DNA of 7,734 bases. It comes from Candidatus Wukongarchaeum yapensis (GTDB taxonomy: Archaea > Asgardarchaeota > Wukongarchaeia > Wukongarchaeales > Wukongarchaeaceae). A model generated the notes under the pieces. That model was not told the DNA's origin. It searched no databases and worked only from the letters and a program-made list of their open reading frames with translations. The stretch is taken from contig JAEOSI010000101.1 in the NCBI GenBank assembly GCA_016840425.1, forward strand, positions 1 through 7,734, read 5' to 3'. A program made the translations under genes and the position numbers. Within the stretch, counting starts at the first letter, position 1, and each line of letters begins with the position of its first letter. Of the stretch, positions 945-6,001 are shown piece after piece.

Positions 945-2603
945 ATGAAGGTTAGGCAAGAGGTAAAATTAGATGAGCTGAAAGACGCTTTAAAGATACG
1001 TAGGGAGGGAGGGTCAGCTACTTTTCTTTTAAATCTTCTTAGTGTGCTTGAGGGATTGATTTTAAGTTATGGTAAAAAGCTTAGGGCTTTTAGTAGGCGG
1101 GGGGTTTTTAAAGATAAGGCGGAGAAGTATGCGTGGACTCAGCTTTTATGTGCTAGGGGGCTTTTAGAGGAAATAGTAGTGATAAGTAAGGAATCGGCTT
1201 TTTTCAGTCTTAGGACCCTTGAGGATTTGTTGAGAAGTAGGGAGGATGTGGTGTATGATGTTGCTTCTGAATCTTTGTGTGTGGCTTTGAAGAAATATCC
1301 GGTTATAGGGGGGGAAGTTATGGGGATTTTGAGGCGTCTTTTTCTGGATAAGGATCCTAGGGTTGGGGAGGCGGCGATAAATACTCTTCGTAAAATAGTG
1401 AGGGTTAACTTGGAGTTGCCTTGTAGATTGTTACCTGAGCTAAGATATCTTTCTTTGGGGGGTAGGGAGATGCGTATGAGGGCTATGGATGCTTTAGAAG
1501 TTTTTGTTGAGACTGATGCGGAGTTTTTTGAACAAGAAGTTGTTTCAATATTGAAGAGAATGGTTTTTGATGATAATGAGCTTGTTGTGGATTATGCGTG
1601 TCATATAATGAATGAGTTTATAAATAGTTTGCCAGATAGGGCTGGCGAGGTTTTATTTCCGATTATTAAAGAGATGGTTGAAAGTGGGAAAGCGCATGTT
1701 AGATCGAAAGCTTATTCTTGTTTGATTGAGTTTATATCAGTTATTTCAGAAGATTTTTTGAAGGATATTTTTTTGTGGATGAAAGAGTTGGTGGGAGATA
1801 AAGAAAGGTTTTGTAAGGAAACGGTAATTGCTCTTTCTGTTTTGGTTAGAAATTCTCCTGATTTTGGAGAGGAGGTTTTAAAGCTTCTAAAGGGTTTTCT
1901 GAAAAGTGGGGATAGGGAGATACGTGTTGCAATAGCGGGTTCTTTGGTGGATATGGTAAACGTAGATTTGATGGTTTTGAAGGAAGGAATAGAGATTTTG
2001 AAATGTTTATTGAGAGATAGGGATTATGAGGTTAGGAAAAGTGCTTTTGAAACGTTATATAAGGTTGTTGAGCAGGCGGCGCGGCATAGTCAGGATATAG
2101 CGATACAGATATTGTCAATGCTTGAAGAATTAATCGTTGAAGATGTTCTTTTTTCTTTCCGAAAATGGGAACATTGGGAAATAAGAGAAAGATTAGCATT
2201 CATTCTTAAAACCTTGATATATAGTAACCCCCAGATTAGCGAAAAGGCTTTACCTTTAATGATTAATTTTTTGGGAGAGAATGATCCGGAAGTTCAAAAG
2301 CATGTGGTTTTTGCGTTGGAAAAAGCGTTAGAGTATAATTTGGAAATAGGGGAAATCATTTTGCCTGAGGTAAGGAAACTTGTAGAGACTGCTGTGGAAG
2401 GTTTTAAAAAAGATCTTAGTTCTAATGAAGCTTTTACATATCTTGTAAGAAGTTGTTCTGCATTGGAAATCGTTTTGGAGAAATTGGAAAAAATTGTGGC
2501 TCCTAAAACATTGGAAGAGAGTAGAGAATTTTTAGAATCAGTAGATAAGCTTTTAAAAAACACAATGTTGAAAAAGCAAAAGGATAAACAGAGAGAACTT
2601 TAA
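945..2603 (+). CDS. HEAT-repeat (alpha-solenoid) protein, 552 aa, ~11 repeats
   Basis: Recurrent ~38-40 aa units with the 'L..LL.D.D..VR..A...L' pattern, e.g. RRLFLDKDPRVGEAAINTL, KGFLKSGDREIRVAIAGSL, KCLLRDRDYEVRKSAFETL, INFLGENDPEVQKHVVFAL. Confidence 0.88.
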   Translation: MKVRQEVKLDELKDALKIRREGGSATFLLNLLSVLEGLILSYGKKLRAFSRRGVFKDKAEKYAWTQLLCARGLLEEIVVISKESAFFSLRTLEDLLRSREDVVYDVASESLCVALKKYPVIGGEVMGILRRLFLDKDPRVGEAAINTLRKIVRVNLELPCRLLPELRYLSLGGREMRMRAMDALEVFVETDAEFFEQEVVSILKRMVFDDNELVVDYACHIMNEFINSLPDRAGEVLFPIIKEMVESGKAHVRSKAYSCLIEFISVISEDFLKDIFLWMKELVGDKERFCKETVIALSVLVRNSPDFGEEVLKLLKGFLKSGDREIRVAIAGSLVDMVNVDLMVLKEGIEILKCLLRDRDYEVRKSAFETLYKVVEQAARHSQDIAIQILSMLEELIVEDVLFSFRKWEHWEIRERLAFILKTLIYSNPQISEKALPLMINFLGENDPEVQKHVVFALEKALEYNLEIGEIILPEVRKLVETAVEGFKKDLSSNEAFTYLVRSCSALEIVLEKLEKIVAPKTLEESREFLESVDKLLKNTMLKKQKDKQREL

Positions 2604-2609
2604 TTTTTT
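2604..2609 (+). terminator. Oligo-T tract directly after the HEAT gene stop, putative archaeal terminator
   Basis: T6 follows TAA (2601-2603). T-tracts are common on this strand, so support is weak. Confidence 0.4.
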
Positions 2610-2664
2610 GTAAATATTGTAAAAAACAGTTTTTTTAATGTAGAATATTTAACAGAATAGTTTT

Positions 2665-2682
2665 AAAAAAAGTTTTTATAAT
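2665..2682 (+). promoter_or_regulatory. Archaeal BRE/TATA promoter, predicted TSS ~2703-2705
   Basis: AAAAAAAG-TTTTTATAAT. Canonical TATA-to-TSS spacing places +1 at G2703 or G2705, exactly where the 11-bp closing helix begins. Confidence 0.65.
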
Positions 2683-2701
2683 GCCTCAGCCCATCTTTTC
2701 A

Positions 2702-2905
2702 TGCGCAGAGGAAAAAATCCTTACACCTAAGATATTCCTGGAAGGAGAAGCCAGTAGGCCCCATCCAGGATAAGAGAGACTGTAGGAAGGTTGTGCGGAG
2801 AAAGCGAGCGCATACAACGAACTAAAAACATCATGGTTAAAAAGCATAGGCGGACACACTTTATAATTACGATTGTCAACGTTGTTTACACTCCTCCTCT
2901 GCGCA
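2702..2905 (+). ncRNA. Putative structured non-coding RNA (~200 nt), family unidentified
   Basis: Perfect terminal complementarity TGCGCAGAGGA (2702-2712) / TCCTCTGCGCA (2895-2905). Nested helices 2718-2725/2781-2787, 2736-2742/2764-2770 and 2750-2752/2757-2759. About 47% GC over 2681-2860 versus about 11% over 2601-2680. TATA upstream, T-rich tract downstream, no convincing ORF. Confidence 0.65.
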
Positions 2906-2907
2906 AA

Positions 2908-2943
2908 TTCTTTTACTGAATTTTACTTTTTTTATCGTTTTTA
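2908..2943 (+). terminator. T-rich tracts downstream of the putative ncRNA
   Basis: TTCTTTT...TTTT...TTTTTTT...TTTTT follow immediately after the 3' arm of the closing helix. Confidence 0.4.
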
Positions 2944-3756
2944 TGCGGGCGATTTTATCTCTAAGGGCAGTTTTACTTTGAGATTTAATATTTTTTCGGC
3001 GCTTCCTTGGTTGATAGATAGCTCTAGTTTGTCATCACTATTTATAAGGGCGATTATTTCGCCTTTTTTCGCTTGAGAAAAGGTAGAGACAAATTTGATT
3101 TTTTCCCCTTCTTTTAATTTTTCATTGATTTTTATCCTAATTTTATCGCCATATGTTATGCCAAATTTTTCCGTGATTTCTTTTGGGATGTTTGTTACTG
3201 CATTTCCAAAGCGATCAATGTGTATTATTTGACCCACTATTTTCTCCTCGATAATTTTCGCTTTTTCGATGGGAAGATATGTTATGTTTTGGCTGTTTAG
3301 TTCTGGTCCTAAATCGCTTAATGGTATACCTTTCGAGAGGAAAGCTGCTGCAGGAGCAAAAATGTCTCTGCCGTGGAAGGTTTTTGAGATTTTATTTAAC
3401 ATGTATTTTTTGTTAGTTATTTGTACTATTGTCGTTATGCCTTCTTCTTCTGCGGCTAGGGTTAAAACACCGTTGTCTGGTCCTACTAAAAGGGATCTTT
3501 TTGTTTGTATTACAATTGCTTTTCTAGCGCCTCCGACTCCAGGATCTATTACTACTATGTGAATGGTTTCTTTTGGGAAATGTTTTGTTGCTGTGCTTAG
3601 TAAGTAGGCTGCTTGTAGTATGTCTTGAGGGGGTATTTGGTGGGTTATGTCTACTATTTTTGTTTCGGGGGATATGGAGAGGATTATACCTTTCATTTGG
3701 GCTGTATAAGTGTCTTTTAGTCCGAAATCGGTTAACAAGGTTATTATTGGGGTCAT
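2941..3756 (-). CDS. DUF62-family S-adenosylmethionine hydroxide adenosyltransferase (SAM hydrolase; fluorinase/chlorinase superfamily), 271 aa
   Basis: Motifs ITLLTDFG, DITHQI, VVIDPGVGGAR, GPDNGVL, SKTFHGRDIFAPAA and IDRFGN. The Asp-Arg-His triad (DPGVGGAR, FHGRD) marks the hydroxide class. The likely start is MTPIITLLTDFG at 3756, with GAGG upstream, not the ORF-track start at 3840. Confidence 0.93.
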   Translation of the reverse strand: MTPIITLLTDFGLKDTYTAQMKGIILSISPETKIVDITHQIPPQDILQAAYLLSTATKHFPKETIHIVVIDPGVGGARKAIVIQTKRSLLVGPDNGVLTLAAEEEGITTIVQITNKKYMLNKISKTFHGRDIFAPAAAFLSKGIPLSDLGPELNSQNITYLPIEKAKIIEEKIVGQIIHIDRFGNAVTNIPKEITEKFGITYGDKIRIKINEKLKEGEKIKFVSTFSQAKKGEIIALINSDDKLELSINQGSAEKILNLKVKLPLEIKSPA

Positions 3757-3787
3757 ATTTTGTTTTTCCTCGGATTTGATTGGTTTT

Positions 3788-6001
3788 TTAGGGGTTTTCT
3801 TTTTCTTTGAAGCGTTCAAGGATTTTATCGTATACTTCATGGTCAGGGGTTTGCTCAGAGAGGCGGGATAAGCGTTCTACAATGAGTTCTGGTGTTGATT
3901 TGGCGAGGTAGTTGAATTTTGGTGTTCTGTCTACTATGAGGTTTAGATTTTTATCGAGTCCTGTTGCTTCTATGCCGTCGATGCGTATTTTGTTTTTTGT
4001 AAATTTTATAATATCTTCTGCTAGGTGGCTTACGAATACGCCGCAGGAGTTCTTTTTTTCGTTTAGCATGTCGAGGATTGCTGCTATTACTTTGGCTGAG
4101 GCTCCAGGTTCGCTTATTGCTTCCATTTCGTCTACAAGGATTATTTTTGATCCTTTTCCTTCTACGATGACTTTGGCGAAGGTTTTTAGTGTTGATTCAA
4201 GGGCTCCTGCGTCCATTGTTCCTGTTGTTTTTGCGAAGTAGTATAGTTCGTCGAAAAGCCCTATTTTAGCGTTTTCGGCGGGTATTGGTAGTCCTGATTG
4301 CGCCATTATTAATAATTGGGCTAGGAGGGTTATGCATGTGGTTTTCCCCCCCGAATTAGCGCCACTTAAGATGATAACGCGTTCGTCTCCTACTTCTGCT
4401 TCTTGGTCTTTTGGTATGTTTCCCACCTTATATCTTATGGGCATTACGGGGTTTCCTTTTTCTAGTTCTGCTTCTTTTAAGAAGAGATTGTATCCGTTTT
4501 TGAAGGATATTCCATAAGTGTCCGTGTAGAGGTTTTCGGGGGGGCTTAGATTGTATTCTTTCGCAAAGAGGGCTATTGCGAGGTGTACGTCGAACTCGAG
4601 CAAGGCTTTTACAGATTCTCTTGTCGTTTCTTCTAATTCTTTTAATTGGTTTGCTATTTTTTTAAGTAACCAGTATTTTTTGGTTGTGTAGTTTCTTCTG
4701 AGGGTGTCTTCTAGTTCTCTTAAGCGTATGTTGTTTACTTGTAGGGGGTAGGCTGTTTCACGGGAAAAGAGTCCTTCAATAATTTCTAGTTCTGAGGGGG
4801 TTAGTTCTAGTTTTTCTGCTATTTTGTCTTCTGCTTTTGTAACTGTTTCTTCGATGATTTCAACGATATCTTCTTCCACGATTCCGCGTAGACTACCCAT
4901 TTCGTCGGCTTCTTTTAAGAGTTTAAGTATTTGCTCCCCTTTAAGGGTTATAGAGCTTTCACCGATTTTTCCTGAAATTTCTTCGTTTGCCCAAACTTCT
5001 ACATCCGAAATGATTCCATCGAGGTTTTCTAAAGCTGTTCGGTATCTGTCTATTTCCGGGTCTATTTTTTCGGCTATGTCGCCATCTAGCGTAAGGTAGG
5101 ATATTCCTTCTGCGACAGTTTCTAATGCTTCTGGATTAATAGAGCCTACAAGGTTTTCAACTGTGGGCATTATGTTTAACTCTTTTAAAAGATCGTTTAG
5201 GTTACAAACAGCGTTAATGGTTTCATATTTTTGTGTGTAAAAACTCAGGACAAGTTCGGGAAAAATATCGATTATATCTGTCGAAGTAGATAATATTTCG
5301 AGGTTTGGAATATTTTCGAGGGAATGATCCATATAAAGGGAGTCGCTTATCAATAAGACTAGGCTAAAAGATTTTGCATAATCTATTGCTTCATCCATGT
5401 TTTCGATTAGATAAATTGGGCAAAAATCTGAACAGTTCTTATTTATGAACTCTTTATAGGTTTCTTCTTTTTCTGTTATAACTACTCGGTCTTCTACTTT
5501 TTTTTTCTTGCGGGTTATGTATAGGGGTGAAATTTTTGACAGGATTTTTTTAATTTTTTCCAAATCTTCTTCTTTAAGATCTCCTACTAATTTTTTCGCT
5601 ATCTTTAGCTTTTCATATCTTTGTTGTATTTTTTCAAGGAATTGGGGGGGGAGGGGATAGTAAAGAAATAATTTGTTTTTAGCGTAATTAGTACTACAGA
5701 AGGGAAAGATTATTTTTAGTATACGATCATGAATTTTTACCGCATTTTCTGTTTTCAAAATTCCTTCTACACTGATGTTTTCTATTGAAGCAAACGCTGT
5801 TTTTACGATGTTTATAGCAGTTTTTTGACTGATACCTTCTATGGAAGATAGACCCGCTATATCTCCATCAAGGATTGCTTCTGTCGTTGTTTCTAAAGAG
5901 CCGTAGAAAGATACTATCTTTTTAGCAAGTTTGGAGCCGACTCCTGGTAGTTTATCTAGGGTGAAGTTTTTATCAAGTTGTTTGAAAAAGTGATTAGACA
6001 A
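3788..6001 (-). CDS. mutS2: Archaeal MutS2-type DNA-binding ATPase with N-terminal helix-hairpin-helix motifs, no Smr domain, 737 aa
   Basis: N-terminal HhH motifs (LDKLPGVGSKLAKKI, LSSIEGISQKTA), Walker A GANSGGKT, TMDAGALESTL, Walker B ILVDEME, VFVSHL. TTG start with GAAGGG upstream. Confidence 0.88.
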   Translation of the reverse strand: MSNHFFKQLDKNFTLDKLPGVGSKLAKKIVSFYGSLETTTEAILDGDIAGLSSIEGISQKTAINIVKTAFASIENISVEGILKTENAVKIHDRILKIIFPFCSTNYAKNKLFLYYPLPPQFLEKIQQRYEKLKIAKKLVGDLKEEDLEKIKKILSKISPLYITRKKKKVEDRVVITEKEETYKEFINKNCSDFCPIYLIENMDEAIDYAKSFSLVLLISDSLYMDHSLENIPNLEILSTSTDIIDIFPELVLSFYTQKYETINAVCNLNDLLKELNIMPTVENLVGSINPEALETVAEGISYLTLDGDIAEKIDPEIDRYRTALENLDGIISDVEVWANEEISGKIGESSITLKGEQILKLLKEADEMGSLRGIVEEDIVEIIEETVTKAEDKIAEKLELTPSELEIIEGLFSRETAYPLQVNNIRLRELEDTLRRNYTTKKYWLLKKIANQLKELEETTRESVKALLEFDVHLAIALFAKEYNLSPPENLYTDTYGISFKNGYNLFLKEAELEKGNPVMPIRYKVGNIPKDQEAEVGDERVIILSGANSGGKTTCITLLAQLLIMAQSGLPIPAENAKIGLFDELYYFAKTTGTMDAGALESTLKTFAKVIVEGKGSKIILVDEMEAISEPGASAKVIAAILDMLNEKKNSCGVFVSHLAEDIIKFTKNKIRIDGIEATGLDKNLNLIVDRTPKFNYLAKSTPELIVERLSRLSEQTPDHEVYDKILERFKEKENP

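Follow-up and report, generated by a model that had tools for sequence, protein, structure and literature searches.

Background

Orphan non-coding RNA (ncRNA) genes that stand out as GC islands in AT-rich archaea were reportedly described by Klein, Misulovin and Eddy in 2002, the Hgc RNAs of Methanocaldococcus being an example. The element analyzed here, from an Asgard archaeon, resembles the Hgc RNAs in being free-standing, GC-enriched and highly structured, in its AT-rich archaeal host, in its predicted TATA promoter and oligo-T end, and in having no assigned function. Several of the Hgc RNAs have since turned out to be H/ACA guides; unlike them, the element does not read as an H/ACA guide, and it shows no sequence or model similarity either to the Hgc RNAs or to other orphan archaeal RNAs.

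Four further classes of RNA invite comparison. With 5S rRNA (RF00001) the element shares a three-way junction, a closing helix of about 10 bp formed by the 5' and 3' ends and two hairpin arms, a likeness of topology only; it is, however, longer by some 85 nt, shows neither the loop C nor the loop E motif and has no match to the model. Archaeal RNase P RNA, minimal type T included (RF00373, RF02357), and eukaryotic MRP RNA are comparable in size (type-T-like), in the terminal helix and in purine-rich, CR-I-like words, but the element matches none of their models at E ≤ 10 and has no P4-type long-range CR-I/CR-V pairing. Y RNA, with its Ro60 protein (YrlA/Rsr in bacteria), is likewise a structured RNA of ~100-200 nt with its two ends joined in a long stem, and lies beside a gene for a helical-repeat protein, whereas the element has no Y RNA model match and its neighbor codes for a PP2A-A-like HEAT protein rather than one with a vWA domain. 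Finally, the multi-intron tRNA genes of Asgard archaea are also ~200 nt long, have a perfect terminal helix of ~10 bp, are missed by Rfam and tRNA scans and lie in genomes rich in bulge-helix-bulge (BHB) introns; in contrast to these, the element shows neither a T-loop nor a D-loop signature next to its terminal helix.

The ncRNA repertoire of the Asgard archaea is almost unexplored, and much of it is missed by standard annotation with Rfam and tRNA scanners. We present evidence from comparative sequence analysis that the element is probably a real, lineage-restricted structured ncRNA gene on the + strand, representing a new family that is so far confined to one genus. A literature search found no description of such an RNA.

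Genomic setting and distribution

The window, by which we mean the whole analyzed stretch of 7,734 nt, corresponds to an entire contig (C92) of a 2.16-Mb archaeal metagenome-assembled genome (MAG), which comprises 277 contigs and is 92% complete. In the genome set searched, the class to which it belongs is represented by only three genomes, and the sole congener among the species-representative genomes (G001) bears the label 'Candidatus Hodarchaeota archaeon'. The element is flanked by an ORF for a HEAT-repeat protein of 552 aa (945-2603, + strand) and by a convergent ORF for SAM hydroxide adenosyltransferase (SAM_HAT; 2941-3840, - strand); the window additionally codes for an archaeal RpoD with a ferredoxin insert and a HHH-MutS protein. 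The GC-enriched island that an earlier note on this DNA had seen between the convergent genes is evident: the GC fraction is 0.47-0.49 at 2700-2849, as against 0.19-0.20 in the spacer at 2550-2699 and 0.38 genome-wide.

The element is single-copy in the MAG, and its invariant motifs recur nowhere else in that genome. BLAST searches of 60 relatives recovered it in the congener only, as one full-length copy (77% identity, E = 1e-39) accompanied by short chance matches. A two-block pattern scan of metagenome contigs added one identical contig and a new variant (L049), while contigs coding for close homologues of both flanking proteins yielded further copies at the same locus. The copies fall into four lineages, namely the window type, G001/L052/L053/L061, L054/L059 and L049/L060. 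All or part of the stretch is present in sequencing runs from 10 studies; the element variants in the four DNA runs examined (sediment, mangrove and soil) are 95-99% alike, and in one metatranscriptome a fraction of 0.04 of the stretch's words was present. The locus is the same in every relative recovered, including the congener, four metagenome lineages and the four sequencing runs.

Beyond the genus, two covariance models (R1 and R2) run against 150 other Asgard genomes and the three-genome class recovered no credible homologue; weak matches in two genomes (G065 and G090) were rejected as they lacked the terminal helix or lay in coding-looking sequence. In a genome of the same order (G002), where the models likewise recovered nothing credible, the SAM_HAT locus has just a 133-nt gap at the equivalent place. 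Among relatives, the identity of the SAM_HAT protein drops from 80-84% directly to ~55%, which makes the clade an isolated one in current data.

Predicted structure of the candidate RNA

The minimum free energy (MFE) fold of the window sequence is the one drawn in the earlier note. Besides the terminal helix it contains a second hairpin and a long one (UCCU(U)ACA/UGUAGGA, then UCCUGGA/UCCAGGA), which is interrupted by a 10+10 internal loop and tipped by GCC-AGUA-GGC. Its energy is -57.6 kcal/mol (z = -3.9), with none of 200 shuffled sequences as stable, and the copy from the congener folds with z = -3.85. The perfect 11-bp inverted repeat that closes the structure (2702-2712/2895-2905) is present as had been stated; since an inverted repeat of this kind also arises in 69 of 2000 shuffles of 2550-3000 (3.5%), the terminal helix is suggestive and mildly unusual but not decisive by itself.

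The RNAalifold consensus of five or six sequences points to a different arrangement of the interior, namely a three-way junction composed of the terminal helix P1, a long P2-P3 arm and a long-range helix P6 (Table 1; the 5' end is misaligned by MAFFT unless 12 nt of flank are added). Of the long hairpin in the earlier proposal, the upper stem and the apical hairpin are conserved, the latter being invariant, but the lower stem (2718-2725/2781-2787) is paired in only ~73% of cells and is replaced in the consensus; its 3' portion can be formed from the internal loop at 2771-2787 in the window sequence alone. The second hairpin, GUUGU..ACAAC (2790-2818), belongs to the MFE fold of the window and is well paired, position 2795:2811 running through a G-C/G-U/A-U series; being in competition with P2 and P6, however, it gives way to other pairings in the consensus.

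Table 1. Features of the element and its flanks (window coordinates)
Feature	Position	Strand	Remarks
Archaeal promoter (predicted)	2665-2682	+	purine-rich BRE-like AAAAAAAG at 2665-2672, then TATA box TTTTTATAA(T) at 2673-2682
P1, 5' strand	2702-2711	+	pairs with 2896-2905; 60 of 60 cells paired (6 sequences)
A-rich P1-P2 junction	2712-2717	+	6 A in the window, 4 in other lineages; from alignments
P2, 5' strand, UCCUUACACCU	2718-2728	+	pairs with 2788-2799; RNAalifold consensus; 95% of cells paired
Asymmetric internal loop, 5' side, AAGRURU	2729-2735	+	alignment and consensus fold
P3 arm	2736-2770	+	stem 2736-2741/2765-2770; inner pairs 2744-2747/2760-2762; apical hairpin GCC-AGUA-GGC at 2750-2759
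Internal loop, 3' side	2771-2787	+	variable, mostly unpaired; most divergent block of the alignment
P2, 3' strand, AGG-U-UGU-G..GGA	2788-2799	+	consensus fold
P6, 5' strand	2803-2818	+	long-range pairing with 2881-2895; inside the most conserved block of the RNA, GAGAAAGCGAGCG.AUACA
A-rich, largely single-stranded P6 cap	2819-2848	+	partly conserved: CGAA.UAAAAA, CAUAGGC
Variable hairpin P5	2849-2880	+	outer pairs GGCG/CGUU become GGCC/GGUU in other lineages; interior not alignable in register
P6, 3' strand	2881-2895	+	abuts P1 on the 3' strand; closes the A-rich segment and the variable hairpin
P1, 3' strand	2896-2905	+	pairs with 2702-2711
Oligo-T tracts T4, T4, T7, T5	2911-2914, 2921-2924, 2927-2933, 2938-2942	+	overlap the 3' end of SAM_HAT

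When both folds are enforced on the window sequence, the local-hairpin fold and the junction fold come to -55.9 and -54.2 kcal/mol, respectively, a difference of 1.7 kcal/mol, and only here is the local-hairpin fold ahead; the energies of the other five sequences favor the three-way junction by 2-13 kcal/mol. In light of this near-tie in the window and the preference elsewhere, we take the modeled three-way junction, rather than two local hairpins, as the family structure and note the other fold as an alternative. The two folds could also be two states of one molecule, a bistable riboregulator that switches between local hairpins and the long-range junction. The small energy difference in the window is in keeping with this reading, as are the facts that both sets of helices are paired in more than 95% of cells across the sequences and that the same substitutions are compatible with both folds. 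However, the preference of the other five sequences for the junction indicates that the balance between the folds is not conserved; furthermore, neither a ligand nor a regulated downstream gene is evident, the next gene being convergent. We regard such a switch as unlikely.

Selection on base pairs

Selection acts on the fold. Paired sites differ by 11-13% and unpaired sites by 38-40% when the window is compared with the other lineages, while third codon positions of the flanking genes differ by 16-21%; thus it is the helices, which evolve about three times more slowly than the loops, and not the loops that change more slowly than near-neutral sites. Standard pairs fill 96.8% of the pair cells in six sequences, under both a first model and the consensus model (with 282 cells in the consensus), whereas sliding the partners by 1-3 columns reduces the share of paired cells to 34-55% for the former and 40-51% for the latter.

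Compensatory changes occur at several pairs. Five double compensatory changes separate the window from the congener under the first model, and double changes are found in P1, in two pairs of P3 and in P5. Those in P3 exchange G-C and A-U at 2741:2765 and 2744:2762, and environmental populations show a path from G-C through A.C to A-U at the former, along with a U-G wobble at 2751:2758. In P5 the fourth pair shows a double change from G-C to C-G. P1 varies among G-C, A-U and G-U at 2705:2902 and between G-C and G-U at 2703:2904, and P2 displays one-sided, wobble-compatible changes at three pairs. P6 has 14 pairs with 96% of the cells paired, the window lineage contributing two C.A mismatches.

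The covariation score was matched by none of 500 shuffles for the first model, as against 52 of 500 for the three-way-junction model, the latter value reflecting the small number of sequences and the strong conservation of P2 and P6. More generally, the covariation statistics are weak because just four lineages of a single genus are available. One point against the preferred interpretation is that the RNA as a whole, at 78% identity to its counterpart in the congener, is no more alike than the neighboring spacers, at 85%.

Promoter, ends and strand

Upstream of the element is a predicted archaeal promoter, whose BRE/TATA block lies ~22-26 nt before the terminal helix begins. All homologues share the block unchanged, whereas the 19 nt that separate it from P1 diverge; environmental variants carry T2682C within the TATA box. 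Judging from the spacing of the TATA box, transcription is predicted to start at ~2702-2705. Downstream, the T-tracts reported in the earlier note are present at 2911-2942 and include a block, CUCUUUUA, that is conserved in homologues; they could function as archaeal terminators. Within the element itself, the + strand has no runs of at least four T.

The - strand deserves separate consideration, as the conserved structure might instead be part of the SAM_HAT mRNA, in its 3' UTR or terminator region, and not constitute a separate gene. The distance from the SAM_HAT stop codon to the element is 36 nt, and the - strand of the window folds more stably than the + strand (-73.4 kcal/mol, z = -6.15), which counts against the + strand reading. 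Moreover, two A.C intermediates seen in environmental variants, at 2741:2765 and 2719:2786, would be G-U pairs if the - strand were the transcribed one. The opposite holds for the consensus fold: its ~21 G-U cells, including two in P1 of lineage L054, turn into A.C mismatches on the - strand, and standard pairing of the consensus cells falls, by our own count, from 96.8% on the + strand to ~91%. Three T5-T6 runs inside the element on the - strand would also stop the archaeal RNA polymerase, and the conserved BRE/TATA block stands on the + side. An origin in the SAM_HAT transcript is accordingly quite improbable, and we retain the reading of a separate + strand gene.

Two features of the flanks may be recorded here. 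A 28-nt direct repeat, 82% identical, occupies 2613-2640 and 2656-2683, with the copies 43 nt apart, and duplicates a promoter-like module consisting of an A-run and a T-run; the upstream copy (2613-2640) could be a second promoter or belong to the region where transcription of the HEAT gene terminates. The other feature is a mirror relationship between TAAAAAAAGT (2664-2673) and ACTTTTTTTA (2925-2934).

Comparison with guide and antisense RNAs

In the window fold, the first hairpin resembles a pseudouridylation pocket, with 7-bp stems around the 10+10 internal loop, and the 5' loop strand of this pocket is invariant. These features raise the question whether the element is an H/ACA or C/D guide RNA, or another antisense regulator, that acts through the conserved strand CUUACACCUAAG. 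An ACA box is, however, missing at 14-16 nt from the upper stem, where AGG or AAAGG is found, and the 3' strand of the pocket is the most variable part of the RNA. Inspection by eye revealed no K-turn or K-loop register compatible with the substitutions: the candidate GUGC-GGA-GA-AAGC-GA-GCGC was rejected because G2795A, present in two lineages, produces an A.C mismatch, and another register explains the changes. There are no conserved C (RUGAUGA) or D (CUGA) boxes on the + strand, and the homologues lack a C-like word that the window carries on its - strand. As for an antisense role, the best genomic match does not exceed chance, being a 13-mer located on the non-coding strand of an ORF; potential targets are generally confined to chance-level 12-13-mers, with none in rRNA, and the invariant strand is base-paired in P2 of the consensus fold. 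A guide or antisense function is thus very unlikely.

Comparison with universal RNAs

A cmscan search of 2560-2990 (431 nt) against Rfam, with all matches to E = 10 listed, gave no match at the gathering score and only chance-level matches to snoRNAs, miRNAs and sRNAs at E ≤ 10. A highly diverged or rearranged universal RNA, be it RNase P/MRP, SRP RNA, 5S rRNA or a multi-intron tRNA, nevertheless merits attention in a genome in which some of these genes are hard to find; in the 431-nt search none of the P, MRP, SRP, 5S or tRNA models aligned even at E ≤ 10.

The earlier note had pointed to partial echoes of RNase P/MRP. These were not borne out: the RNase P and MRP models RF00373, RF02357, RF00009 and RF00030 had no match to the element at E ≤ 10, and a canonical archaeal RNase P RNA (RNaseP_arch, 184.6 bits) is encoded elsewhere in the MAG, at 7930-8284 of contig C123. 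This gene is located ~900 nt downstream of the 23S rRNA gene (9181-12253) on the same strand. The archaeal SRP model (RF01857) likewise found no match in the element. The SRP RNA gene of the MAG lies at 1-210 of contig C170 (- strand), where the contig end cuts it, thereby explaining why Rfam detects only a 20-bit fragment; the copy in the congener is full-length and scores 164.6 bits.

A 5S rRNA identity might be suggested by the shared topology of a three-way junction with a terminal helix, and by the fact that RF00001 detected no canonical 5S rRNA in either the MAG or the congener; the same model had no match to the element at E ≤ 10. In the congener, two adjacent half-matches to RF00001, sub-threshold at 16-18 bits each, occur ~5 kb from its copy of the RNA (contig C1 of G001; L055:1409-1570). 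Read directly, this region is a circularly permuted 5S rRNA gene, in which the 3' two-thirds (GGAAGUUAAGC..., with the gamma arm GAGUAC/GGGAAA) are followed by helix I with a tiny loop and then by the 5' third ending in CCGAACUCGGAA. A perfect 9-bp helix (CAACGCCUG/CAGGCGUUG) encloses the gene; a TATA-like box precedes the gene and T-tracts follow it. The presence of this separate gene in the congener indicates that the candidate RNA is not the missing 5S rRNA; consistent with this, lineage L049 has not kept the candidate's 5S-like words, CGAAC and GUUAA.

The tRNA reading was tested because tRNA genes are here mostly found only when introns are allowed: ARAGORN reports 4 in the MAG without introns, 18 with the -i option and 29 with introns of up to 120 nt, suggesting that most tRNA genes of this genome are interrupted. 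At the element, ARAGORN found no tRNA with or without introns. It also found none in 16,492 single-deletion variants, with a canonical intron additionally allowed, nor in ~277,000 variants with 1-3 excisions at relaxed BHB sites on either strand, double and triple excisions being enumerated at BHB-like sites only. In a positive control, a tRNA interrupted by junk sequence was recovered after excision of the insert. No cloverleaf thus emerges after any of the tested excisions, of up to three introns, on either strand, and a multi-intron tRNA was rejected. Altogether, we find a disguised universal RNA highly improbable and continue to treat the element as a candidate RNA family of its own.

Coding potential and mobile elements

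As the earlier note had held, the element contains no credible ORF: none is conserved, and 2-nt indels shift homologous segments into different frames across lineages. A small protein on the - strand was considered and rejected on the same grounds, the long open frames there being attributable to the A-poor composition of that strand. It is barely conceivable that the element is the remnant of a MITE or a DNA-level palindromic element, as its 11-bp perfect terminal inverted repeat around ~180 nt might suggest, for there is one copy in the MAG and one full-length copy in the congener with no dispersed copies, the locus is identical in all relatives, no target-site duplication is visible in the flanks, and wobble-compatible and compensatory changes point to selection at the level of RNA and not DNA.

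Proposed nature of the RNA

Together, the single-copy occurrence, the lack of Rfam and tRNA matches, the invariant BRE/TATA block, the slowly evolving helices and the compensatory changes support the proposal, first made in the earlier note, of an undescribed, stable RNA that is structured and has a promoter of its own. We consider it highly likely that the element is a real gene for a structured RNA. The more specific reading that we favor, and hold to be reasonably probable, is an independently transcribed (as predicted) + strand ncRNA gene of ~205-230 nt that is so far restricted to one Asgard genus and adopts a three-way-junction fold. Transcription would start at ~2702-2705 under the control of the BRE/TATA promoter and would end in the oligo-T tracts from 2911 onward. 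The transcript would then fold into a 10-bp P1, a P2-P3 arm with the invariant GCC-AGUA-GGC hairpin, and a 14-bp P6 stacked directly on P1 and bearing an A-rich, partly variable cap. It seems to be no guide, riboswitch or catalytic RNA of any known class and might, as we suggest with low confidence, act in trans as a stable protein-bound RNA of the ribonucleoprotein (RNP) type, for which the invariant apical hairpin, the junction core and the A-rich single strands could serve as binding surfaces. Our searches for such an RNP returned no protein partner, target or known RNA-binding-protein motif, and no K-turn was recognized by eye. The TROVE domain (PF05731) has no match in the 92% complete MAG, and a Ro/Y-RNA module is hence not supported.

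A free-standing RNA of ~205 nt whose fold is under selection and which has no known relatives is a candidate for a new RNA family and could be the RNA part of an RNP. For now its value is limited by the narrow known distribution, which spans one genus and four lineages. Default scans likewise miss the 5S rRNA gene and the majority of the tRNA genes in this genus.

Eukaryotic Y, vault and MRP-like RNAs drift in sequence beyond recognition outside a genus. It is a very speculative idea, to which we attach little weight, that the candidate RNA is a fast-evolving RNA subunit of a lineage-specific RNP in archaea near the eukaryotic stem, with the HEAT solenoid encoded upstream as a possible partner; if true, it would be an archaeal counterpart of these small eukaryotic RNP RNAs. 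The structural model of the HEAT protein (pLDDT 84.6) is an open, PP2A-A-like solenoid without a vWA domain. This all-helical protein has homologues detectable only in the genus-level clade (five clusters, 80-100% identity), and its lineage restriction is the same as that of the RNA.
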